Shown: in pieces, positions 5,945-61,500 of the stretch
How positions within the stretch are numbered: the stretch's first letter is position 1
Layout: each line of letters starts with the position of its first letter
Assembly (NCBI GenBank): GCA_051294375.1
Contig: CM119268.1
Coordinates: 22,881,427 to 22,945,426, forward strand
DNA from: Paraspadella gotoi
Lineage: Eukaryota; Animalia; Chaetognatha
DNA length: 64,000 bases
Direction of reading: 5' to 3'
Position numbers and translations under genes: made by a program
Notes under the pieces: generated by a model
What the model was told of the DNA's origin: nothing
The model's database searches: none
Seen by the model: the letters and a program-made list of their open reading frames with translations, nothing else

Positions 5945-8900
5945 TTCCCCACTCAGCGCAAAAACATCGCGGCCAAACACGGACTTCTATGCTCGGTGAA
6001 GATGGCCTACTTCCACAAGGACTACACTTACCCGTCGTCATTGTCTTCCGACGGGCGACTGCGAATTGGCTACGTCTCATCCGACTTCTGCAACCATCCG
6101 ACGTCGCACCTCATGCAGAGCATCCCTGGTCTTCACGACAGAACCAGGGTCGAGGTCTTTTGCTACTCATTGTCCGCAGGTCTGGTTTACAATAATTCAA
6201 TCATTTATCCTTTTATTCATTGATTCATTCATTCATTTAATTATTTATTCATAAGACGACGGCACCAATTTCCGTGCCAAGATTGAGCGGGAGGCGGAGC
6301 ACTTCATCGACTTGTCCAAGATCCCTTGCAACCTCCAAGCGGCCGACAGAATTAACGCCGACGGAATCCATGTCCTCGTCAACATGAACGGCTACACCAA
6401 AGGCGCCAGGTCGGTCTTGAATAATAGTATTTAGACAATTGGTCATTATTGTTTAAAATGTTTCTTAATTTTAAAATTCAGGAACGAGATCTTCGCTCTT
6501 CATCCTGCTCCAGTTCAGGTTATGTGGCTGGGGTATCCGGGATCTAGCGGAGCCTCTTACATGGAGTACATCATCACTGGTTAGTTTTGTGAATCGGTGA
6601 TTTCATTAATTCATTTCGTCGCCCCGATACGAATATCGCCTTCCTCATCCCGATCCTCGATTTCTCCTTCAGACGAACAGACTTCCCCTCGCCGCTTCGA
6701 GTCCCACTACACGGAGAAACTGGCCCACATGCCCCACACGTTCTTCATCGGCGACCACAAGTTCATGTTCCCTCAGTTGAAGCAACGCGTCATTCTCTGG
6801 GAACGGAAGGAAGAGGAAGAGGGTGAGGGTAATTGAGGATGAGGAAGCATTCGTACAAATCTTCTTTTTCACACTAATCTCACCGATCAGGCAGTGAGAG
6901 TCTTGTGATAAAACGGGGTCCTTCTGTATCATTTTTTTGTCATAGGGATGGAGGCCTTAAACCACCATAGCCCGTCCAAAGCCAGGGCAAGATAGTTTAT
7001 TTATTGAATCGAGTACAATTTCGTATAAACGTATTGGTTTTACCCAATTTCATTTCATAATTTTTTTTTCAGAGAATTTGGCGATGGAATCGGCTCCGGA
7101 CAACGTGATGATTCTTCACGGTTTAGATATGAATCCTGTCTTCGATCTGGCAAAAACCGTTGGCGAGGTCAAGGCTTTGCCCGGTAAGGGAGTGGTCTTT
7201 TCATGCAGTTAAAACTTTCTTTGAAATATTATAACACTGCATGGATTGGGAAGCCAGGTACTCTGGGAGTGAATAAGTACGACTGCGAGAGAGTCTTGAT
7301 TGAAAGCTTGCAGGCACCTGCCATGTCATTATCTTGTAAGAGTGATGGAGGCCTTAAACCACCAAAGTCAGGGGCAAGAAAGCATATTTATTAAATGAAT
7401 GGATAATTTTAATAATAAATGTAACTGGCATTTAAAACTTTAAAAATACTTGTCTTTTAGGATAGTCTTCAAAGCATCTGAAGTTAATTCTCAATATTCT
7501 CAACCTCCTTCAGCCCCAGGCCGGTTCGTGGCCGACTCCGCCGATCCGGTCGTCACGTCCGTGGTCGAACTTCCGCCCAAATCGATGGCGAAAGTGAAGG
7601 CGATGGTCAACTCGATGGCGCCGAAGGTGGAACTCACAGGAAGCGACGCCGACGCGGAACCCGTCGTCATTCTCAACGGCGCCATCCAGACCAACTCAAA
7701 AATCGCGTCGGGTGAGGCAGTCATGTGATACTTTTATTTATAAGGCAACAATACTACAATAAAATGTTTATATATTATTTGGAAACCGAAATTATTATTA
7801 AACCCTATTAAAAGTATTCTTGAAATATTTAAAGAAGGCTTATAATAAATTTAATTAAGAGATGTAGGGGATATTTTAAACTGCTACAATATGCAAATGA
7901 GATTGAAGCACTTTGTCGTTATTGGTCAGGGGTCGCCTTGGATTCAATAGCGCCTTTCTTGGTTTATCCCGTGACAAAAAAAATAAAGTCAGACATATTT
8001 TCGTTATGCCATAAATAATTAAATAAAGTAAATGACTTAATATTTTCAACTTTGTTTCTTTAAGGCGAAGAGGTCCCTCACGATATCCTTCTGACCTCGC
8101 GAGCTCAATACGGCCTTCCCGACGTCGGCGTCGTATTTTGCAATTTCAACCAACTTTACAAGATCGACCCTCGGACCTTCGAGTGCTGGTGTCGAATTGT
8201 CAAGCGCGTGCCCAACTCTTACCTCTGGCTCTTGAGATTTCCCGCCGCCGGTAATGGATAATAACTAATTATAATTAATAATAATAATAAATTATTCACT
8301 CATTGACATCGTTAAAAGGCGAAGCGAACATCGTGGAGTTCGCTCAGTCCAAATGCGGCCTTTCTTCCTCTCGAATCATCTTCTCCAACGTCGCCAACAA
8401 AGAGGAACACGTGAGACGTGGGAGCATCGCCGATATCTGCCTGGACACGCCCCTTTGCAACGGACACACCACCGGTGCGGAACAGTTATTTTTTTCCCCA
8501 TATACTTATTTTCTTACACAACCTCTTTCTTTTAGGGCTCGACATGTTGTGGACCGGCACGCCCATGGTGACGCTTCCGGCGGACACGTTGGCGTCTCGC
8601 GTCGCGTCGTCTCAACTCAAAACTTTAGGTGAGTGAGAATTGATAAGTGGGTATTGGGTAAGGGAGCTGACGTAAGGGATATGCAAAGAGCGGAGGAAAG
8701 AAAGTAAATTCAATTTATAGTATAGTAAATGAGAAAGATTCCCTTTCTCCTATAGGCTGCCCGGAACTCATTGCCAAAGATTACAAGGAATATGAGAACA
8801 TTGCGGTGAAATTAGGACTGGACGCCAAATACAGGTCAGCCCCGAAATCTGATTCGACAATTAATTTATAGAAAAATAACCAATTGTGGACGAACATCTA

Positions 8901-21100: not shown

Positions 21101-21969
21101 AGTTCCGCGAATCATTTTATTAACTTACCGTCCCCCCCCACCCGTCTCTCCCTCAAGGTGAGTCAAGACGACGACGGTCAACCACCTCACCCTCATCGCT
21201 CCGCCTTCGTCTCCACCATCATTCCTCTTCTCGATCGCATCTCCGTCGCTCATCCTCGCTTCGCCGACGACGACGACGTCCTCCACCGAGTCCCCGGCGC
21301 CGCCGACGACGTCCTCCACCGAATCCCCGGCGCCGACTTTTACCTCGACGCTAACGGGAATTCCGTGGCGGCGCCGTCGCCCGGCGCGTCGGCTGCGGCG
21401 CTGACGTCGGTGGCGACGGTGTCGACGTCGCGACCCTCGACGCAGCATTTGGTCTCTCAGGTTCGGATTATTGGTTTGAATGAAATTTGTATGAAATTGG
21501 TAATGCCAATGTAAAAATAATCTTGCCCCTGACTTTGGGTCAAGGCCTCCGTCCCTCTTACAAGTTTACAATCAAGACTATCTCGCCGTCTCGTTTATTG
21601 ACTACCAGAGAACCTGACTTCCCTATCAATGAAGTGCTATAACGTTTCAAAGAATGTTTTAATTGTATAAAAGGACCTCTCTCTTAAGTATTAGATCCAC
21701 ACTAGCATCACAATGCACGGAGTTGAATTTTATTAGTATTGGTAAATTGAGAAGTGATCACTTTGTCACTCTGACCTCTCCCCCCCCCCACAAAGGTGGA
21801 GAAGGCGGTCTCGGATCTTCGTCAAGCCTTCGCCGTCGTCGACGTCCGCGCACCAGGATTTCTCGACATCTTCCTCGAGCGCCTCGTCCGCCACGTGGTC
21901 TCCTTGGAGACGGGAGACGAGCGGAAGTTGGCTCGAGGGATCGAGATGGTGCGGGGGAGGTTTGGCTGA
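18164..21969 (+). CDS. GckIII: GCKIII-family STE20 kinase (STK24/25/26-like) with C-terminal CCM3-binding helices
   Basis: [67 protein letters not shown]-terminal [14 protein letters not shown]. Confidence 0.93.
20906..21083. mobile_element. Short TG...CA-bounded GC-rich intronic insertion (solo-LTR-like)
   Basis: TGTTATGG...GGCTACA. Shares AATCCTGCCTA and GTGAC..GGGTG.CAC with 32404-32639. No clear TSD. Confidence 0.35.
21481..21685 (-). mobile_element. Repeat family A copy
   Basis: Reverse complement of the 60535-60789 consensus. Confidence 0.75.
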
Positions 21970-35645: not shown

Positions 35646-38562
<2,917 letters not shown>

Positions 38563-39096
38563 GGAGGAAAAAAGACCTGCGTCCGAATTTAATTGTTAAT
38601 TAGTTAATCTCATACTAGATTTGTAGATTGGAGTAAATTCATCGTCGCGATTCTCTCCCCCTCCCTCCTCCACTTAATTTTCGAAACGCGGCCATATCTA
38701 GATTCTTTTTATTTTTTTTTTTTGGTTTTTATTCGTTCGTTCAATTTTTTTTGTGGTCTTATTTGTTAATTCAATGTTAGTAAACGTTTGTTTTTATTCA
38801 CTACAGGGAAATAGTTGTGACGAAAAAAAAAACAAACTGGTAACAGATACGTGAAAAAAACAAAAAAAAACAAACTGAAATCCGCCTCAAGATTTCTGAG
38901 AAAAATACAAGACCGAAGTTGTGGTCCTAAAAATCTCAACTTCCTGTTTCTCTCTGGATCATTATCCCTCGCTCCTTTCTCCTTTCTCCTTTTTCCTTTT
39001 TCCTTTCTCCTTTTCCAGTTCTCCTTTTCCAGTTCAAATCCCTTTTTTTTTTCTAAAATCCTCTCAAACAGCAACTCTCCCAACCCTGACCCAGCC

Positions 39097-41582
39097 ATGC
39101 ACCGCCCATCTCCCAACTCCTCCCCTCGAGGTCACCCGAACCAACAACATCACCATCATCTCATCTCCCATCCTCAAACTCCGGCCACGCCCTCCATCCC
39201 CGGCGCCCCTTCGTCGCCGCATCTCTCGGCGTCGCCGTCGGCCGCGACGCCGGGATCCGATCCGGCGTCGCCGATCGCTCACGCGTCTCACGCTCATCTG
39301 AGTCATCATCATCCATCGCTGCTTCACTTTCTTCCCTTTCACGGGGCGCCCGTCGTCGCGGGTGAGCTTGGGGGGGGGTGGGGGGAGTGGTAAGCTTGCC
39401 TTCTTTAGGGAATAATTTAACTAAACCATTATGGCAACGGGAGGATAGCCTGTGATACCCGGGGCGCGGGGTATCTCACCACCTGGCGTCGGGGCTGCGG
39501 ACCCTCAGTGACCGCCTCCTGTCACTGGCATGTTTATACCGGCACCGTCACATTTAAGCCAGAACCGGATAACCCAGGGATTGAACCCGGGACGCACGGA
39601 TGGAATGAGATGATTTAGCCTGCTCAGCCATTGAGACGAGGCTGAGGACGCCAGTGAGGCAGCTTTAAGTCTTGCTGCCACAGGATCCCCACCAGACTTC
39701 TCCACAGGGGCCTCAATCCTGAGGAGATGTCTGAGAGAAGGTTTTGATCTCATTGCCTAGTGAGAGCGAGCGGGCGAATGAGCAAGCGAGTCTGGAGCGT
39801 TACCAGAGAAGTAGGGCATAGGCGTGATATGCATACCCTAAGCGACGTAAGCATGGGCGCACGGTGCGCAGCGGTTGCGTGTTCGAGAGTAGGGCTCACC
39901 ACTTATGGCAACGGGAGGATAGCCTGTGATGCGCGGGGTATCTCACCACCTGGCGTAGGGGCTGCGGACCCTCAGTGACCGCCTCCTGTCACTGGCATGT
40001 TTATACGCCACCGTCACATTTAAGCCAGAACCGGGATACCCAGGGATTGAACCGGGACGCAGGATGGAATGAGATGATTTAGCCTGCTCAGCCATTGAGA
40101 CGAGGCTGAGGACGGACAGCAGTGAGGCAGTTTAAAGTCTTGCTGCCACACCATCCCTTTTTTTTTTATTAATTGTAAAACTAAATGATTATTACTCATA
40201 ATTAAAAGTATTTTTTTTTAAATTATTTTTAATTAAGCTTTTGAAAAAAAAAACTATGACCGAATCCAAAGATAGGGGAAATATTCCAAACTGCTACAAT
40301 ATTCAAATGAGATTAAGAAACTCGATCAATTTTACATTCTTATATCTTCGATGTTTTTCTCGTTCCTTCTCTTTCCCCTTTCTTTTCTCCCCTTCCTTTT
40401 CTCCCATTCCTTTTCTCTCCCCATCTCTTTCTTTTCTTCCCCCATCTCTTTCTTTTCTTCCCCTATTTTTCTCTCCTTCCCCCTTCGTCCCTCCCCTCCC
40501 TCAAGATCAGCGCGCGAAATTCGAAAACGACGAACTCTTGCGAAAATTGTCCCGGGAATCCGAGATCCGCTACACGGGTCATCGGGATCGACCTCACGAC
40601 GAGAGGGTCATGAGGTAAAGGGTCTCGACTCTCGAGAGTCTCGAGTCTGAAACGGATTTATTTAAATTATTATTAATTCTTTTAACTCCCAATTGATCCG
40701 GGATTTTCCTTCCGTCAGATTCGCAGCGGATTGCCGCGACGGTCGATTGGACATCGCTTACGCTTCGACGGGAACGAATTTCGGTCTCGTCAGGTCAGAT
40801 ACCATTTATCAATTAACTAATCGTTTTAACTCGTTGGGAAAACCTTTTTTAATTTTTTTTTTTTAACACGGTTATTGATTTAGTAATAGTTTATAATTGA
40901 TTCAGTCTTTGCATATGGATGGAAAATAATAAAACAAAGTAGATTTAATATGTTATTCCTTGTGAATAAATCTACTTTTTTATTATTTCCCATCCATATG
41001 CCAGACGGAATCAATTATCAACTATGACTAGACACTAATCCTCCCAGAATCATGACTGAAACTCTATCCGATTTTGATTTCTTTTTTCTCCGATTTTAGT
41101 TCCAATTCCGATTCTGACTTTTTCGATTTCGATCGCGAACCCGGAAAAGTTCACGTCTCCTCTTCGCTCATCTTCAACGGAGTCTGCGTCAAGTGGGTCG
41201 GGGTGCTCGATCTGCAGGTTAGTCTTCTTAATATCATGTATATATTGTTACAATTTTTAGTTAGATATTAAATACTACCTTAGTCTTTCGGTTTTTCGAC
41301 AATGTTAAAGATTTAACAAGAATCGGTGGGAGTATTTTGATTAAATAGATGCTGAGCCATTAGGACGTGAAGATTTAAAAAAATAAGATAAAATATTATA
41401 CATTGACTTAATATTTTCTTTTCCCCTTTCCTTACCTTCTCTTTCCTTACCTCCAGCGCATCGACGGTGTTGGTCAGTTACAGTTCGACGAGGTTGCGGC
41501 ACGTGCCTTCCAGGGCCAGTGCGCCCCGCCCGCAGAGGCGCAGCAGCAGGCCGACCACCCCGTCGTTACGGCATCCGCTTAA
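39097..41582 (+). CDS. CBFB: Core-binding factor beta (Brother/Big brother) with His/Pro-rich N-terminal extension (5 exons)
   Basis: VVADQRAKFENDELLRKLSRESEIRYTGHRDRP, CRDGR..STGTN, DREPGKVH..IFNGVCVKW.G.LDLQRIDGVG. Confidence 0.93.
39483..39562 (-). ncRNA. Type-P5 twister ribozyme in the 3' LTR (predicted U|A cleavage between 39536 and 39535)
   Basis: Minus strand: P5 CUGGC, UUAA, P2' AUGU, GA, CGG, short P1 hairpin UGCCGGUA, UAA, P2 ACAU, GC, P3 hairpin CAGUGAC/GUCACUG, AGGG-U-CCG-CA-GC-CCCG, P5' GCCAG. Confidence 0.85.
39950..40028 (-). ncRNA. Type-P5 twister ribozyme in the 5' LTR (predicted cleavage between 40003 and 40002)
   Basis: Same fold as 39483-39562, with a perfect P4 AGGG/CCCU. 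Confidence 0.85.
40881..41030. repeat. Imperfect ~150-bp palindrome (MITE-like) in CBFB intron 3
   Basis: The arm TAGT..ATAATTGATTC..GCATATGGATGG.AAATAATAAAA..AGTAGATTTA pairs with its downstream reverse complement. Confidence 0.75.
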
Positions 41583-41966: not shown

Positions 41967-43226
41967 CAGAGTGTCTCAAACGTACTGTCACTTTACAAAT
42001 GAACGCTGTGTTAAATTGGTATGGTAAATTATCAAGGTGATAGAACCACCGGAAAGATAAGTTCATACAGTTTTTTTTGGTATCTATATTATCATTTTTA
42101 TTTTTATTTTTATTGACACAATGCAAATTCCAAATGAAGGGAAATTTTGTTTTGAGAGTCGATCAAAAAATTTTGGTGATATTAAATTTATAAAGTATTC
42201 CTGCTTTTGGTGAAAAATATAATTGTGCATATTATATTATAGTAGGCCACTATGTTTATGTAGGCGAGCTATTTGGTCCTAAAATAACAGTAAACTTAGC
42301 TCTAGTAGTATTCCCAATAAACATACCAATTAACTTACTTGTAGAAGAATAGATGCTAACAAGAGTCTTTAATAATAAACAAATATATAATGCTTCTAAC
42401 ATAATTCCTAACCCAATAAGTAAGAACTAAGACCAGAGAGGATGGGACTGCCATATTGGAAGCCAACTCTGTTCCAAGTCAAAGCATAGAATTCATCCTG
42501 AAGCTTTAAACTATAATTGAAATACCTAAGAGTGGCTTCCAATATGGCAGTGCCATCCTCTCTGGTCTTAGTTCTTACTTATTGGGTTAGGAATTATGTT
42601 TATTATTAAAGACTCTTTCTTTCCTCCATAGGGTATGTATGCTTATGACTTTACTTCCCTTAAGCTAGCTATATGCTTCAAGCATGCGAGTATTCTACCA
42701 CAGCAAGTTAGCATCTATTCTTCTACAAGTAAGTTAATTGGTATGATTATTGGGAATACTACTAGAGCTAAGTTTACTGTTATTTTAGGACCAAATAGCT
42801 CGCTTACATTTATTGTGCCCTTTACTAAGAATTTTGTGAATTAAGAATGATTTACGATGATGATAATGATTTCAGAAGAGAAGATTCAAAGAATGATTAC
42901 AAAGAAAATTTGTTTTTTTAGGAGCTCAGTAATTTTACCTTCAGGAACTGATTAACGCTACAAATTTAGTATCCTATGATTCAGCATATGATTCATAGAT
43001 GCATAGAGTACATTCTACTGCTAAAGCTATTTTCCAGCTGAGTGCAGCTCATAAGTATTGCCAATGTAATTGGCTCCGTCAAACAAGCTGCATGTCTGTA
43101 ACAATCTGTCAAAGACATATAAAACTGTAAGAACTTTTGGATCCAACGAGTAAAGTAAATGCATTTTTTATTACTTTACTGATTCGCTGTATTCATTTGT
43201 AAAGAGACAGTACGCTTGAGACTCTG
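41967..43226. mobile_element. Non-autonomous Tc1/mariner-type DNA transposon remnant
   Basis: ~37-bp imperfect TIRs CAGAGTGTCTCAAACGTACTGTCACTTTACAAATGAA, with TA on both sides. Confidence 0.75.
42259..42808. mobile_element. Foldback/MITE with long TIRs, TGT...ACA ends and 4-bp TSD TTTA (Ginger-like), nested in the Tc1-type element
   Basis: 42259-~42470 is the near-perfect reverse complement of ~42530-42808 apart from indels. TTTA at 42255-42258 and 42809-42812. Confidence 0.8.
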
Positions 43227-43720
43227 TAGTAGTCCTAACTTTTTTGGCCTCAGTTACAGCATTTCTTACTAAGTTGGTGTTTTCGTTGTTAATTTTCACG
43301 TTGTGACCGGGTTCGAGGTGTTTCAATGTCTTGTTTTTCAAATCTTATGAAAATCATTTTCCTCCGTCTATTAGAAAAATCGTTTTTAAATATTCTTTTC
43401 TTTTTTTAAGCGATATTCATATCTTCATCCAGCAGCAGCAGCTGCAACCGCAGCCTGCCGCTTTCTCCGCATTTACCCGTCGCTGCTGTCGAAAGCCTTC
43501 GTTACGAATATGAAGTCTCTCTTGCTAAATACGCGGTAGAAGTTGATATTTCTTCCTATGAACCCAAACGCTCTCGACTCGAAATCAAAATGTCATTGAC
43601 GATTCGCTGAATTTAGTGTCTTGACTCCACACACTCGGATTTCTGCGTCTCCTTTTAAAAGAGAGCGAGACAGAGAGGGAGACGGTCTAACTCCTTCCCC
43701 TCTCAAAAACTCTGAAAGCC

Positions 43721-47303
<3,583 letters not shown>

Positions 47304-50538: not shown

Positions 50539-52817
50539 ATGTCTCGTGGAGAATTGGCCTGCAAAGTCTACGTGGGGGAGTTGGATCCGAGGGCGGAGAA
50601 GAAGGAGGTGGAGGATTGTTTCGCCAAATGCGGACGAATTAGGTGAGGACTGACTGACTGACTTTTTTGTTGTGAGGAGAAAAGGAAAAAGGAATTTGAT
50701 TAATGATCTCATTTTCAGGGTGGCAACTGAGAATATTCCCTTCTTTAGATTTCCTCGCAACTTGAACTTTATTTGAATGCATGTAAATTATATGTAAATA
50801 TAACTAAAAGCGAGTCTCTTAAGGTGTGGTTTTTCTCAATTGCCTCCTGCTTTTTTTTTTATTTGGTTTTAATTTTTTGTCGGCCAGGTCTAGTCATAAG
50901 CGTAATTCTGACAACGCTTCTCAAATGTGGCGGTACTCTGTACCGCGTCTTATAAATTATTTATTCAAGTTTGATTTCAATATTGCTATATTCATCTAAT
51001 AAATGTCTTTTTAATAAAGCTTAAATTTATAAAAGGTAACCCCGAATTAATATGTTTAAAAATTGCCAAAAGTGTAACACGAAAACTATTTTCTATCTTA
51101 AGTAATGACCTTCCTACCTTCGTGGGAGGCTGATAAAATCCTCGCCCCTTCGCGCCCTTCCTACGGCCCCTTATTAAATGGCGACCCGTCTGGCACTCTT
51201 CCGGCGCGTCGCTACGTATCACGCGCGCCCGTGCCTTCGCGTCGCGGCGCGTTCCATGCTACGCGCCGGGCCTTCTCGTCGCTTCCTTGTTACGCGCGTC
51301 GTCTTGTCACGTCCCCTTGCGCCGCGTCCCGTCGCGTCACGTCCGTCGGCGTCCGTCCGTCCGTCCGCGCGATTAGATTCTTGATTGAGACAATCGTCAG
51401 ATGAGAGCGAGACAAAATAGAGGGTGTGTTGAGAGAGACAGAGAGTGAGTTTGAGATAAAAAAGTGAGAAAAATGGGAGAGTAAGTTGTTAAGGAGTCAT
51501 AGAGAGAAAGAGAGAGACGGAGATCATGAGATTAATCTCCAAAGAGATAGAGTGTTAGAAAGAGAGAGAAAGCGAGACAGAGAGAGAGTTGCACAGGGGA
51601 ACGCTTCCTTCCTTGCTTCCTCCTCGACGCGTCTTCCTTCTTCTCCGTTCGTCGTAATTAATTCTCTGCTTTAGTCTCGTCTTAACTTCGTTTCACTTCG
51701 GTCAAATTCAAGGGTAAAAAAAAAAAGAAAAACAGAAACTGTTTTGCCTATATATTTTGTCATTTGTCTATTAGTTAAAAAAATATTCATTTTGTTGGAA
51801 TATAAATTTTATTTTCGTTATCATTTGGGTGTTGATATTTTCCTGTGCATAAATGGCATAATGCCGTATAACTCAAGCAAGCCATTTGTTATAAAGCGTT
51901 TTTAACTGGATTTAACTGCTCCGCAAATTGACCTTTCAAATATTTTTCAACAATGTTTAATATTTAATAATTGTTCTGTGCCTTCCTTTAAATTAAGCTG
52001 AACTTCTCCTTCTCCCCTTCCCCTCCGATCCCCTTCCCCACTTATCCCCACCCCCGCCATTAGATCCGTCTGGGTCGCCCGCAATCCTCCCGGTTTCGCT
52101 TTCGTCGAGTACGAGGATCCGCGCGACGCCGAAGACGCGGTGCGCCATCTAGACGGGTCGCGCATCGGACAGGGACGCGTCCGCGTGGAGATGTCACGCG
52201 GTGGGCGTGGCCGTCGCAAGGACGAGTATCGCGAACAGAGACGCTACTCGCCGCCGAGATACGCTCCGAGGTTTGAACGGTTACGTATATATTAAATAAT
52301 GAAATTGGTACAACCAATATAAAAATTATCCATTCATTTAATAAATAAGCAATCTTGCCCCTGACTTTGGACAGGCTTTGGTGGTTTAAGGCCTCCATCA
52401 CTCTTACAAGATAATGACATAGCAGGTCCTTGCAAGCTTTCAATCAAGACTCTCTCACAGTCTCGTTTATTCACTCCCAGAGTATATATCCCAGATATAT
52501 ATATCCCAGATAATAATAATTTCAAAAGAAATTGTGTTCTCCAATCTCATTTGCATATTGTAGCAGTTTAGATTATTTATTTTTTATACGGTTTTCATAG
52601 AAGTATTATTTTACTATTTTAGCGATAATTTTAATAGGGTTTAATGATAATTTAGTTATCCAATTAATATCTCAATATTTATAATAGAAAATTACTTAGT
52701 TTTTACTAAGGCGCTCTCAATTTCCTCGACAGGTCCCGTTCCCGTGAACGTCGTCGCTCTCCTTCGCGCGAAAGAAGCTACAGGCGCTACTCTCGCTCTC
52801 GCTCCAGAAGCCACTAA
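50539..52817 (+). CDS. SRSF3: SR splicing factor, SRSF3/Rbp1-like (exons 50539-50642, 52064-52269, 52733-52817)
   Basis: [45 protein letters not shown] plus an RS tail. No zinc knuckle. Confidence 0.88.
52299..52482 (-). mobile_element. Repeat family A copy (5'-truncated), adjacent to a family B copy
   Basis: Reverse complement of the family A consensus. Confidence 0.8.
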
Positions 52818-55599: not shown

Positions 55600-58500
55600 A
55601 TGTCTTCTCTGGCGGCGCGGCGCCTTCTTTGGCGTCGATGCGGCGCCCCCGACGCCGGCCTGGCACGCCGGCAAACGCAGTTGCGCGCCGCGTCCTCTTA
55701 CGTGGTTCTGCTTCCGGAAATTCCCACGGACTCTCCGGAGACGAACGCCCTCATGCGGCCAGATTCCTTACCCGCTTTCAGGTAGCCTTTGACCCGTTTT
55801 TTGTGATAGGGCGAGAACGAGGACTGGGCGACTTACCAACCTTCTTCTCCTTACTCCACAGCGAGATAACCCCCGAGTCCTCCGTCAGCGGCGTCGCCAA
55901 ACTCTCCATCGAATTCGAGACCGAATTAAGTCTCCACGTCCAACGCCTCCCCAGCCTCCCTTCCACCTTCGACCAAGTCATTCGGCCTCTGGAGCTCGTC
56001 GCTTCTCCACTCGATTTCGCGTGGAAGACGGTTCGTCACCTCAGCAACGTTCAGAGGTGCGAGGATCAACGGATCTTAGTTGATCAGTACTTTTGTAACA
56101 GATGGTTTCTTGGTATATTTCTGAATGAGACTCAGAATAGTTTTAGTTTAGTTTGTTTAGTGATAAATAAATCAAATTGCTTCTGTTTCAATATTTGACT
56201 CGTTTTGGGGTTTTTCTGAGTCTTTCTTTATTCGCCTCATGGCCCAACCAATTGAATATCTCAGGAGCGAGAAGTATCCCAAGGCGTATCGACGAATCCA
56301 CCCTCACGCTCTCACGGCCAAAAACGAGATGTGGACCCACAAAGCTCTTTACGAGGCTGTCAAGGAATTACGGAAAGACGAGAGTCTGGGTAAGATAATT
56401 CGAGCAGTGTCGCCGATTGTAGTACTAAAATTTTAAATCTGTAAAATAAAAAACAGATACTTAGTTAAGGTCCTTTTAAACATTAGTTGGGAAGGCCAGG
56501 TGCTGAGATTCCCTGGATGTTAATAAATTAGACGGTGAAAGTTTTTATTTAAAGCTTGCATGGTCCTGATATGTTATTACTTGTTACCTTTACCCACTGA
56601 AGCCTGTCTAATGTCAGGAGGCAAGAAAGCTTATTTATTACAATGGTTGCGCCAATTTGATAGAAATCTTGTGGGGTATTGAAGGCGTGAAGAACTCGAG
56701 GGAAAAATAATGGTATATTTCGCGAAGAGTAGAAACGAGAGAATGTATCGCTAGACAAAATATACTGAGGGGCAGGAGGAGGAAAGAAGAAGAAGAGGAG
56801 AATTGGACGGCAGGCCAAATCCTCCTCTGGAAATGAACCTATTAAATGGAACTGGAATTCCTCTTTGCTTTCTCCCAGACGAATTCCAACGTCGCGTCTT
56901 GGACGTTTACGATTTAAACTTTCGACTCAACGGAACTCAACTCGACGCGGATGAATACGAGAAGCTCAAGTATTTTCTCGATCGGTTGAACGAGGAGAGA
57001 ACGATCTTTAGAGACGTTGTTGCCTCGACAGAAAAGAAATTCAGGTTTGGGAAGAGAATTAGGAGCTTAACTCCTGGATTCAACTTTGATTGATACGAAT
57101 AAGAAAAATTGTAAAAAATTGTCTTCTTTCCCCATGTACCTTTTCAAGCTCGACGCTAACCAACCCGGACGACGTGCTCGACATGCCCCATTTCCTGATC
57201 AAGTATCTCGCCGAAGACAAGCTTAACCCGATTCGCGGCCCCTGGAAGGTCACTTTAGATCCCGCCATCTTCCACCCTTTCATGGAGTACTGCCCCAATA
57301 GGCGAGATTTTCTATGGAATTATAAAGTGTGTTTGTATTTTGATGCTGGGCGGAGTACAATATAGTATTCCCCGATCTAATACAATAAGGGAGTGGTATT
57401 TTCATACAATTGAACCTTTCTTTGAAATACTATACACTTCATTGATAGGAAGCCAGGTACTCTGGGAGTGAATAAACGAAACTGTGAGCGAGTTTTGATT
57501 TAAAACTTGCAGGGACCTGCTATGTCATTTTCTTGTAAGAGTGATTGGAAGCCTTAAAAACCACCAAAAGCCTGTCCAATAGTCAGGGACAAGAATTTAT
57601 TGAATGAATGGATAATTTTTATATTGGTTGTTCCCATTTCATGAGATTAGAATCCATTTATTTATCCAGACTAGCTCGGTGGAACGCCTGGCAGGCGTTT
57701 TACGACAAGGCGGGTCCGTCTCACGGAGTCTACAAGACGAACAAGAAACGAATCGAAGACATGAGGTTTAATCGAATGAGCATCGCAAATCTCCTCGGGT
57801 TTAAAGTGCGACGGATAATTGAATTATTTATTAAATAAAAAAAACCTAAATTAACCGTCGATGTCATCCTTAATCCGATCAGAACTTCGCGTCGATGTCT
57901 CAAGAGACGAAGATGTCGGGATCCGTCGACGTCGTCCTCGGATTCCTGGAGAATTTGAGATCCTTCGCCAAACCTGTCGTCGACGAATCCGTCAAGGAGT
58001 TGGAGGCTTTCGCCAAAGAAAACGGTGAGACATCTGAGAGGCATCTATTTCTCTTTCTTCTCGTCTCTGTTTTACAATATTTTTTAGTTTCTCATATACT
58101 TTCTTTGATGTCCAAAAAAGCCCATTTATATGTAATTTGGATGAAAGCTCGTTCAGGCCTCAGAGAGAGTTTCCATGGACTTGACTGTAAATTCATTCAA
58201 TCATTTTTTAATTCATTTATCCTTTCATTCTTTCCATTCCATCCAAGGCTTCGACGGTCCCAACCTCGAACTCCACGACGTCCCCTTCTGGCGACGCCTC
58301 CACCGCCAATCCCTCTTCCCCGCCGTCGCCGACGCCGCCGACGCCGCCGAATACTTTCCTTTCGAGTTTGTCTTCGACAAGATGTTGGAGACGCTCGGCC
58401 GCCTCTTCGAGATCGACTTCCAACGGGTCGTCGATGCTGAGGTGGACGCTTATCACCCCGATGTCAGGTGAAGGCAGATTTGGGTGGTTGGAAGTGTGGT

Positions 58501-61500
58501 GGACGGTTGTGGTGAAAAAGTGTGGTGGACGGTTGTGATGGAAAAAGTGTGGTGGACGGTTGTGGTGGACTTTTTAAAAGATGATTACTGTGTCGAGTCT
58601 CTTGTCCAGACTTTACCGAGTGACCGACCGGACGACTGGATCCACTTCTCATCTTTACGTCGATCCTTTCGCCCGAAAAGACAAAGTCAATGGAATTTGG
58701 TTCCAAAGCGGGAGAGAGAGATGCGATTATACAGGTTCTTTTTTGAAAGAGAGAGACAGAGACAGACCTTTTTAGGTCCTAAAGATGAACTTGTTTATCA
58801 TTGACTAATTGTTAATGACGTTTATGAGATATTTACCAAGGAATTGTATCTTACTCTTAGATATTATTTAAAGCGAAACAAGACTTAATTCCTTGATTTA
58901 ATTTCTATTTTTATTCCAATTCATAAAGTATAATTATATAAATTAACGCGAGAATAATATTATATATATGCTATGTCATTATGCTATGTCATTATCTTGT
59001 AAGAGTGATGGAGGCTTAAACCACAAAGCCTGTCCAAAGTCAGGGGCAAGATAGCTTATTTATTAAATAAATGGATAATTTTTATATTGGTTGTACCAAT
59101 TTCATAAAATTCAGCTCCTTGTATTTTGATGCTAATGCGGAGTACAATAAGTATTCCCCGATCTAATACAAAAAAATTCAACATTTTTCTAATAGAGAAT
59201 TCCGTTCAAATCTGACTACCCAAATTGCAAACGCGTTTGCCAGAAATTCGGTTAAAAAACACTTGTAAAAACACACGATTCCGAGAGCATTACATCTGAA
59301 GAGCTTGTCCTATTCATTTTATGGCATTTGATAAAGGATTTAATATCTAACAAGCCAGGGGAAATGCACTACTCATCTCCGGAGAATTTTCAAACCTCAT
59401 TTTTACTATAGAAATGAAAGGGAAAGTTTACAAACTTAAAATTGCAAACGGGATTGCTATGTTCCTGTTACATGAGCGACTTCGAATTTCGCGATTCTGA
59501 TAGCTTTGTGTCTGAAGAGCTTGTCCTATTTTCTTTTTTCATTTTATAATGATTTTGACATAAAATGATCAGGTTTAAATGAAATAGTCCGGTTTGAATC
59601 GCAAAATTTTTATTTAAAAAGAAATTAAAAGGAAGGTTGAGAAAAAAACTGATTTTTCCTAATATCTTTTGAAGGAATAAAGATAAAGGGATGGTAATAG
59701 TACCAAAATGAAGCCATAATCATAGGGCACATACAAGATACAATTTTAGAATTACTTATGCTGAAACCTCCTTACAGAGTGAGTGTCAAACTAAGTCAAA
59801 ATTATAATGAATTTTAAAACTAATGACACCCCATAAGAATAAATGGAAATTTAATTCTTTTAATGATTCTGAAAAAAAAAAGGCTAAATTGTACTTTAGT
59901 AAAACTTTAAAGTTTTTTGGATAAAGAAAATGTGAATTTTTTGTCACTTAAATATTTGCTTGTCTGATTTTACAAGCATGCTTACAAAATTCTACAAAAT
60001 ATTATTCACCCCATCACAGCCTAAGTATTTATCTTTCTTTTCCACAGCAAAAAGTAAACATTGTTTTATGCTAGAGAACAGGGATGTTTACTGAAATGAG
60101 CCGAAAGACATTCAACTTCTTCACTTTACTGTCATTTTTCAATAATAAATAGGCGAATTTTTTAATTATTTAACTCTCACAGGCTTTACAAGACATTATA
60201 CTTTCATAATATCAATGTTAATGTAATTTATTATATTTTTTACCCAGAAATCATAAAATAACAGAAAGTTGTGGATTCCCTTCGCTCGTTTAAGAAAAAA
60301 AAAATTTTAACTACGGAATTATAAGTTTGTAAGAGGAAGTCAGAATCGGCGAAAATCTTAAAAGGCGAGAATGTTGAAAAAAAGGGGTGGAATTTTGATG
60401 GGTTTCCTAAGATTTCTCCACAATGTGAGTCCGATTAAAGCGAAACTTGAGATTTACAATATTCCCGTCATTCCACATCTATCGATATAAAAATATAAGA
60501 AAAAAGTCACTGGCTTCTTTTTATAGCGGCTTCCTAGGGAGTGGTCTTTTCATACAATTGAAACATTCTTTGAAATATTTTCCACTTCATTGATAGGGAA
60601 GCCAGGTACTCTGGGAGTGAATAAACGGGACTGTGAGAGAGTCATTGAAAGCTTGCAGGGACCTGCTATGGCATTATCTTGTAAGAGTGATGGAGGCCTT
60701 AAACCACAAAAGCCTGTCCAAAGTCAGGGGCAAGATAGCTTATTTATTAAATGAATGGATAATTTTTATATTGGTTGTACCAATTTCATAACTTCAAATC
60801 AACAGAATAAAAAATTTTCGATACGTAATCAAAATACGACAATATGCAAATGAGATTAAAGGACTAAAAATCGTTCATGATCTTATCCTAGGCACGACGC
60901 CCATCGGTTACCTCAACTGCAGTCTGGCGCCAAAATCTCCCGGCGCCGACGTGACCCTCACCTTCGCCGAACTCAATGACCTCTTTTTCGAGATGGGGAT
61001 GGCGTTGAGAGATTTGGTCACGGCCACGCCCTACGGGGAAATATCGGGTCAGTTAATGACGGCGGTATATCTTATAAAAGTTAACATCGATCGGTCGAGC
61101 ATTGAAGAAAGGTAAACTCGTTGATTTGGAGACGAGATAATCTGGTACATCAGTTCCAAAATGTCCCATTATGAAAATCCGATGATGAGATAAATTAAAC
61201 TTAACCTCCTTAGGCTCAAAGAACGTGGAATGGGACGCGGTGGACGTCCCCGGTTTCGTCCTCACCCATTTCCTCACCTCCTACCCTTTCGTCCGCCGCC
61301 TTTCCCGCCACGTCTCCACGGGCGAGCTCCTCCCCTCCGACCTCTTCACCGCCGCCCTCTCCTCTCGCCGCCATTTCTCCGCTTTCGATCTCCAGTGGCA
61401 GGTTCTCCTCTCCGCCTTCGACGTCGAATGCCACGCCTCCACCCGGACGTTTTGGCCCGACCTCTTTCGTCAAATGTTTCCCCTTCACTTTCCTTTCTCC

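Follow-up and report, generated by a model that had tools for sequence, protein, structure and literature searches.

Can the long terminal repeats (LTRs) of an animal retroelement hold twister ribozymes, and could such an element spread through a circular RNA, as is modelled for the LTR retrozymes of plants? This question is raised by a 64,000-nucleotide stretch of DNA from the chaetognath Paraspadella gotoi (GenBank assembly GCA_051294375.1, contig CM119268.1, positions 22,881,427 to 22,945,426 of the forward strand; hereafter the window), in which an earlier note had picked out a small LTR element at 39430-40150. Retrozymes are divided into LTR elements of plants with a type III hammerhead ribozyme and non-LTR repeats of animals with a type I hammerhead (PMC7229834; bioRxiv 10.64898/2026.07.22.740005; here and below, statements taken from papers other than PMC5113685 apply to the part of each text that was available). 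The present element breaks both of these rules, with an LTR architecture in an animal and a putative ribozyme of another class. On balance I consider it likely to be a retrozyme, in which Pol III (RNA polymerase III) would read through the element, two twisters would cut the transcript, and the product would be closed into a circle and copied by Gypsy-type machinery.

Twister motifs in both LTRs

The strand order of a type-P5 twister (P5 and P2'-GA-T1, P1, UAA-P2-GC, P3, P4-L4 and again P5) is found in both LTRs on the minus strand, as the earlier note had claimed. The pseudoknots T1 and T2, which it had described as satisfied, are indeed paired in all cells of an alignment of the four copies in the window, namely one in each LTR and one in each of two solo LTRs, which lie 4-5 kb from the element and belong to a diverged sister subfamily (subfamily 2). 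The equivalents of the catalytic G45 and of A7 and the U-A scissile site are identical in these four copies (twister numbering is taken from the Osa-1-4 matrix header in PMC5113685). The P5 helix, which was absent from the earlier listing, is present with 5 bp and pairs in all four copies with letters specific to the subfamily, P3 is a 7-bp hairpin, and the L4 loop of subfamily 1, that of the element, has C in place of A.

A descriptor of the type-P5 order matches the 64-kb window four times, at the two LTRs and the two solo LTRs. The same descriptor finds 4 loose and 0 strict matches in 100 shuffled windows and 1 loose match in 20,000 shuffled LTRs, odds that are flattered as the descriptor was written after the motif had been seen. 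A related descriptor also catches an Rfam-confirmed type-P5 twister in the viral locus L047. The type-P5 descriptor is insensitive, detecting only one of the seven Rfam type-P5 loci among 20 controls, so that further copies may be missed.

The two subfamilies allow the motif to be judged by its conservation. The 5' halves of their LTRs are identical at 61 of 126-128 positions (48%) and their cores at 46 of 62, while 16 of the 17 core positions checked are invariant in all four copies, including the equivalents of G45, A46, U6, A7, A8, G13, C14, U24, A29, G30 and C31. In the four-row alignment 66 of 69 cells are paired (slid controls, 28-44%), and three of the 19 pairs are changed on both sides, two in P2 and one in pseudoknot T1, a type of change that the slid controls lack altogether. 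Both the percentage paired and the covariation score beat the shuffles (1/500).

Published mutagenesis of Osa-1-4 gives relative activities of 1.00 for A28C, 0.86 for C27G/G47C, 0.74 for C26G/G48C and 0.97 for G44A (PMC5113685; values obtained by column counting, with 0.48 versus 0.39/0.821 for A28G as a check). By this comparison the unusual L4 base is tolerated, as is every other substitution looked up, and the same paper states that P1 is non-essential for the twister. From the conserved core and these comparisons, the fold is very probably that of a twister under selection, and there is a good probability that typical members of the family cleave.

A palindromic P1

P1 is the part in which the motif departs most visibly from the earlier description. 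The segment itself stood up, though as a palindrome-type stretch of 7-8 nt instead of a hairpin, and the copy in the 5' LTR is shortened and altered, a minority form among the aligned contigs (rows 40005 and 40008). To judge from this damaged P1, the present insertion is somewhat decayed. When the commonest contig letters are placed at 44159, 45554 and 45555, the 8-mer of subfamily 2 also becomes self-complementary, by eye, with a different sequence. Animal hammerheads have a weak, palindrome-capped helix as well and cleave better as dimers (PMC7229834), and the palindromic P1 together with this likeness suggests that two copies cut as a strand-swapped twister pair. I would give even chances to cleavage depending on, or being much helped by, the pairing of P1 between two copies. 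In the literature searched, no paper on natural twister dimers was found.

Several results weigh against an active twister of this design. In Rfam searches over 38-42 kb no twister or hammerhead match was obtained at E<=10, and a search with a 101-base stretch gave only twister-P1 (RF03160), with a score of 15.5 bits against a gathering score of 67.2 and an E-value of 0.48, and no RF02684, whereas 20 phage control loci yielded 19 twister matches, seven of them to type P5. The weak alignment spans the UAA-P2-GC-P3-P4-L4 part, the 3' half of the motif, and nothing relevant was returned for either solo LTR. A covariance-model match had been set beforehand as a test, and the score remains below the Rfam threshold; with a P1 that has no stable hairpin, the word "complete", which the earlier note had used for the twister, does not hold. 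A plausible cause of the low score is that P1 is so short, together with the additional P3 hairpin. Among 39 distinct control motifs in type-P5 order, derived from 133 viral loci chosen for a canonical L4 motif, P1 in these phage sequences is 14-39 nt long and folds at <= -7.9 kcal/mol in 38, whereas no hairpin is predicted for the 7-8 nt of the element. By chance alone 2% of random 8-mers would be self-complementary, and neither solo LTR has a fully palindromic P1 as it stands. At 39544, where P1 begins, about 11% of the depth in the DNA run X1 shows another letter, and in run X11 a low-depth contig differs at three positions across T1/P1 without covering the partner strand.

Folding predictions point in the same adverse direction. 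Compared with the predicted fold of minimum energy, the nested twister skeleton is less favourable by 4-9 kcal/mol, the pair probabilities of P2 and P5 are near zero in the context of the LTR (in a model that excludes pseudoknots and dimers), and shuffles of the motif region fold as well as the region itself (z -0.1 and +0.2). The predicted 467-nt circle is only modestly stable, with z -1.9 and 2 of 100 shuffles as good. As to the covariation, the count of doubly changed pairs is not above its shuffle control (292/500), and two subfamilies represent a single event of divergence. The Osa-1-4 values are 2-hour end points from another ribozyme, with changes that were not combined. Finally, the B box of subfamily 2, which bears on the promoter discussed below, is degenerate.

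A Helenus-like backbone

The element is non-coding and small, and its ends are well defined. The earlier note had given it two LTRs of about 250 bp and a CCAT target-site duplication, and both are borne out, with LTRs of 253 and 247 bp and CCAT on either side. Aligned to each other within 39430-40150, the LTRs show 235 matches, eight substitutions and 14 gap columns. The claimed tract resembling a primer-binding site is also there, with TGG on the minus strand 2 nt past the 5' LTR. At the other LTR, the short G-rich tract that resembles a polypurine tract (PPT) has two additional G in part of the family (an insertion behind 39686 in aligned contigs). The statement that there is no open reading frame (ORF) holds for frames of protein size, but ATG-led frames of 82 and 66 codons, the longest in the element, are present.

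In the DNA run X1, 1,974 contigs align to the element, and contigs run into unrelated flanks at 39428-39430 (58 contig ends) and at 40150 (31 contig ends). Dozens of departures exactly at the ends of the element indicate a dispersed, multi-copy family. The 4-bp duplication is exact for the full element and for one of the two solo LTRs, and matches at three of four bases for the other. In runs X1 and X9 the consensus of the loose ends at the termini 39430, 40150, 45464 and 45698 is AT-rich, often with AT as its first or last letters, which hints at a target preference, though agreement is low (0.42-0.67).

What the earlier note had missed are tRNA-derived A and B boxes in each LTR; its reading as a non-coding LTR element of an animal stands, but the architecture is that of Helenus/TRIMp3. 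Helenus is a group of miniature terminal-repeat retrotransposons (TRIMs) with tRNA-derived LTRs, whose animal members have 4-bp duplications and Gypsy-like primer sites, and whose motifs are TRGCY and YGG in the A box and GGTTC in the B box (PMC10886601). Both LTRs of the present element have TRGCY and GGTTC, with AGG in place of YGG, and a spacing of 41-43 nt from A to B box. By these LTR boxes, the backbone is that of a Helenus-like, Pol III-type TRIM. ARAGORN reports no tRNA in the window. Transcription by Pol III seems likely to me from the boxes, and it is unvalidated for Helenus too (PMC10886601).

The Helenus LTRs compared here have the tRNA-like part near their 3' end, typically followed by a T-rich tract, and some end in TA (PMC10886601). 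In the element the minus strand is free of runs of four T (T4), the nearest being at 39058, 370 nt downstream, and the twister motif begins about 15 nt past the B box. Reading the element on the plus strand was considered and rejected, as the A and B boxes, the TGG tract and the twister are all on the minus strand and the plus strand has a T4 at 39742. With Helenus/TRIMp3 the element further shares a length below 1 kb, the lack of coding capacity, two LTRs with tRNA-like sequence (TRGCY, GGTTC), the animal 4-bp duplication, several families per genome and solo LTRs, and a TGG tract resembling a primer site and a weak PPT-like tract lie at the ends of the interior, but here about 140 nt with the twister motif, and no T4, follow the tRNA-like part. 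In the available text of the Helenus paper twisters are never mentioned and ribozymes occur in one reference only (PMC10886601). In its supplement none of the 27 places with AAGCCC or CAGCCC, the L4-P4 hexamer, has a twister context by eye; this comparison consisted of short-motif look-ups, and matches split by a line break escape it.

Proposed course of events

I propose that Pol III would start in the 5' LTR near 40101 and, as it meets no terminator, continue through the whole element. Both twisters, probably paired with each other through their palindromic P1, would then cut at 40003/40002 and 39536/39535, which by simple arithmetic gives the unit RNA of 467 nt that the earlier note had named. 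A host tRNA ligase would close this RNA into a circle, to be copied from a tRNA primer by a Gypsy-type helper; ligation and tRNA-primed copying by such a helper are modelled for plant retrozymes (PMC4918200, PMC7761336). The closed circle may be kept stable because a lone twister whose P1 has no partner would cut poorly. I lean towards both sites being cut and the product being circularised: an RNA cut at both sites would be without terminal repeat, and a circle would then be the simplest template for reverse transcription of the LTR type, as has been argued for plant retrozymes.

A more specific version of this proposal I put forward tentatively, as possible but doubtful. It holds that the LTR twisters are inactive singly and form a strand-swapped double ribozyme via an 8-bp palindromic P1, with cutting only when both LTRs are in one transcript or two RNAs are paired, and that a stable 467-nt circle undergoes Gypsy-type copying. 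The element would then be the first animal LTR retrozyme, the first one based on a twister, and a TRIM driven by Pol III.

Some hints of transcription come from run X9, which has depth in the nine bins that overlap two exons of the neighbouring YY1 gene and lacks it in all 11 bins that are purely intronic or flanking, each of which is covered in the DNA run X1. With this exon-only coverage X9 behaves like RNA, though no run is on record as RNA. X9 contains both LTR families, and a 231-nt contig across the interior of the element reaches a depth of 897, where the YY1 exons have 40-130; neither copy number nor expression level was derived from summed contig depths. I regard X9 as no more than a hint of transcription of the element, as contigs have neither strand nor ends nor circles, many X9 contigs reach into genomic flanks, and repeats of high copy number ride passively in transcripts. 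In contigs, moreover, a circle looks like a match from LTR to LTR.

Alternative explanations

The same observations can be read in other ways. A twister that is active could merely make the 3' end of the RNA, replacing the Pol III terminator, so that a linear RNA would be the template, with a terminal repeat of about 99 nt and ordinary LTR strand transfer, and no circle would arise. I consider this rather unlikely. It would agree with the position of the motif, some 15 nt past the B box where the compared Helenus LTRs typically have their T-rich tract, with the lack of T4 on the minus strand of the element, and with the 99-nt repeat expected if transcription starts near 40101 and the cut falls at 39536, and misfolding of the first copy is plausible. 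However, the same motif stands in the same local context in both LTRs, from a palindromic P1 one would expect a symmetric pair in which both sites are active, and the doubly cut RNA would have no repeat. Plant LTR retrozymes of similar layout also give circles (PMC4918200).

That the element is an ordinary Helenus-type TRIM, which acquired a twister from another retroelement and now carries it as an inactive passenger or as a signal for structure or dimerisation, seems improbable. The lack of an Rfam match at threshold, a P1 unable to fold as a hairpin and the poor predicted folding in context all speak for it, yet the catalytic and pseudoknot positions are kept, with compensated pairs, between subfamilies whose 5' halves are only 48% identical, and the substitutions looked up are all tolerated and P1 is reported as dispensable (PMC5113685). 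A chance resemblance to a twister in a GC-rich LTR would account for the Rfam E-value of 0.48 and for matches to a descriptor that postdates the sight of the motif. This I hold to be very improbable, since 100 shuffled windows gave four loose and no strict matches, the compensatory changes include a pseudoknot pair, and the related descriptor also recovers the type-P5 twister of L047.

Relation to known systems

Roth et al. 2014 is reportedly the source paper of the type-P5 twister ribozyme. With this type (RF02684, clan CL00120) the motif has in common the strand order, the core bases, both pseudoknots, P2, P4 and P5, but the type has a P1 hairpin of 5-13 bp, whereas here P1 is a self-complementary stretch of 7-8 nt; a 7-bp P3 hairpin, C for A in L4 (subfamily 1) and the missing RF02684 match are further differences. 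Lunse et al. 2017 is said to belong with the animal non-LTR retrozymes and dimeric hammerheads. These are likewise small and non-coding, with ribozymes that have a weak, palindrome-capped helix, cleave better as dimers and give circles, but they are tandem type I hammerhead repeats, linked to Penelope-like elements, without LTR, primer site or PPT (PMC7229834; bioRxiv 10.64898/2026.07.22.740005).

Plant LTR retrozymes resemble the element in being non-coding and in having two LTRs, each with a self-cleaving ribozyme motif, a 4-bp duplication, a tract at the place of a primer site, solo LTRs, a unit-length RNA predicted to be without terminal repeat, and a presumed Gypsy helper (PMC4918200). 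They differ in having a type III hammerhead where the present element has a twister motif (the hammerhead families give 0 matches at E<=10 over 38-42 kb), and the animal host, the length of 721 bp, the 467-nt unit and the A and B boxes in the LTR are peculiar to the case described here. Their primer-binding site (tRNA-Met) and PPT are shared with Ty3-gypsy; in the present element a TGG tract stands where such a primer site would be, and the candidate PPT is a short G-rich tract. Circles have been shown in plants (PMC4918200), and in the present case the circle is a prediction from sequence alone.

Twisters have been linked only to non-LTR elements of the RTE/Perere type in the available parts of the papers (PMC6765202, PMC5680766, PMC9695139, PMC10085705, PMC9901934, PMC6154101, PMC8501958 and two preprints of 2026). 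The T-variant twisters of Perere-3 in Schistosoma mansoni are similar in that a twister with a weak or absent P1 is found in an animal retroelement, but they occur singly, at the 5' end of an autonomous non-LTR element, where the target site completes P1 (Liu et al. 2021, PMC8501958), whereas the motif described here has a circularly permuted order, is self-contained and occurs twice, in true LTRs. An LTR element with twisters was not found in the literature searched, in agreement with the suggestion of the earlier note that this combination is undescribed in animals; Repbase, subscription journals and preprint supplements were outside the search and could already contain the family. The element lacks the hammerhead of plant retrozymes as well as the P1 and the Rfam match of canonical type-P5 twisters, and it has most of the features of Helenus. 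It is likely best described as a Helenus-like TRIM that would work like a retrozyme.

If the proposal is correct, the LTR route with ribozyme and circle arose again, independent of hammerheads, on the backbone of a Pol III TRIM, and twisters would have a second role in retroelements beyond the trimming of 5' ends in RTE-type elements. The family would also be a natural test of twisters working as dimers, like hammerheads, and it would answer how a TRIM with a tRNA promoter ends its RNA without having a terminator in the first LTR.

The sister subfamily

Subfamily 2 is a family of high copy number as well, with 7,030 contigs of run X1 aligning to 44000-45760, of which 94 and 111 contig ends leave into flanks at the two termini. 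In one contig of run X10 an LTR of subfamily 2 is joined to the primer-site region that the element has. Runs X10 and X11, recorded as other organisms, have three and four low-depth contigs, so few that I make no claim of spread between species; in run X12 no contig aligned. Of the runs X1-X17, the contig comparison covered X1 and X9-X12. The exact LTR motif has no match in the metagenome collections. A degenerate motif is found in 27 viral loci, none of which fits the type-P5 descriptor, and these searches of public collections, being without relatives, provide no covariation set outside this genome. The single match to a gapped subfamily-2 motif, L028, was rejected as chance, as it lies in bacterial-like coding DNA with no twister match. 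The viral contigs L064, L077 and L093 each have two twister L4 motifs on the same strand, 314-463 bases apart.

The twister at 45526-45566 (minus strand) has lost the whole P3 hairpin and kept all core bases, as a natural minimal variant; most aligned contigs carry P3, so that the loss seems private to this copy. Both solo LTRs are antisense to the YY1/Pho gene, where an active ribozyme on the sense strand would cut the pre-mRNA, and two cases are too few to speak of selection.

Features of the window and its neighbourhood

Table 1. Positions in the window of the element, its predicted parts and related repeats
Feature	Positions	Strand	Remarks
Non-autonomous LTR element (TRIM)	39430..40150	-	721 bp, 57% GC; ends confirmed by contigs departing into unrelated flanks
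5' LTR	39904..40150	-	247 bp; TG...TA termini, imperfect terminal inverted repeat
3' LTR	39430..39682	-	253 bp
Target-site duplication CCAT, left copy	39426..39429	.	
Target-site duplication CCAT, right copy	40151..40154	.	
Primer-binding-site-like tract, TGG start	39890..39901	-	2 nt past 5' LTR
PPT-like short G-rich tract	39685..39692	-	immediately upstream of 3' LTR
A box (from 40094) and B box (from 40053), 5' LTR	40043..40094	-	likely Pol III internal promoter; TRGCY and GGTTC
A box (from 39630) and B box (from 39587), 3' LTR	39577..39630	-	tRNA-derived
Type-P5-ordered twister motif, 5' LTR	39950..40028	-	predicted cut 40003/40002
Type-P5-ordered twister motif, 3' LTR	39483..39562	-	predicted cut 39536/39535
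P1 segment, 5' copy	40004..40010	-	7 nt, damaged, self-duplex -4.5 kcal/mol; most aligned contigs have the 8-nt form of the 3' LTR
P1 segment, 3' copy	39537..39544	-	8 nt, fully self-complementary, self-duplex -10.9 kcal/mol, no hairpin
Unit-length RNA, 467 nt, predicted from the two cut sites	39536..40002	-	inferred from predicted cuts
Subfamily-2 solo LTR with twister motif	44070..44301	-	core 44172-44111; antisense in YY1 intron; flanks match at 3 of 4 bases
Subfamily-2 solo LTR, twister without P3	45464..45698	-	core 45566-45526; duplication AAAC; antisense in YY1 intron
Second repeat family, pieces	7185-7414, 21558-21697, 45752-45993, 52299-52484, 57386-57648, 58982-59111, 60536-60791		

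The element sits between a RING-H2 gene, which ends near 38557, and the YY1/Pho gene, which starts near 43720 and whose REPO motif and zinc fingers settle that the host is an animal. Over about 60 kb (4364-63419) all ORFs with Pfam matches, the RING-H2 gene and YY1 are on the plus strand, with matches to TPR, an STK24-like kinase, RRM, PIH1, peptidase M3 and glycosyltransferase 49. Another family of dispersed repeats, about 250 bp long, occurs in at least seven pieces in both orientations (Table 1). Long inverted repeats at 42258-42809 and 40881-41030 are MITE-like (resembling miniature inverted-repeat transposable elements) or hairpin-forming, the latter with only sub-threshold matches to microRNA families in Rfam, and within the region of the RING-H2 gene a CT-rich, low-complexity, degenerate tandem array extends over 37290-38140. 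The peptidase M3 exon at 61189-61791 matches plant oligopeptidase A structures (96 bits) better than human thimet oligopeptidase (52 bits), despite the animal host.

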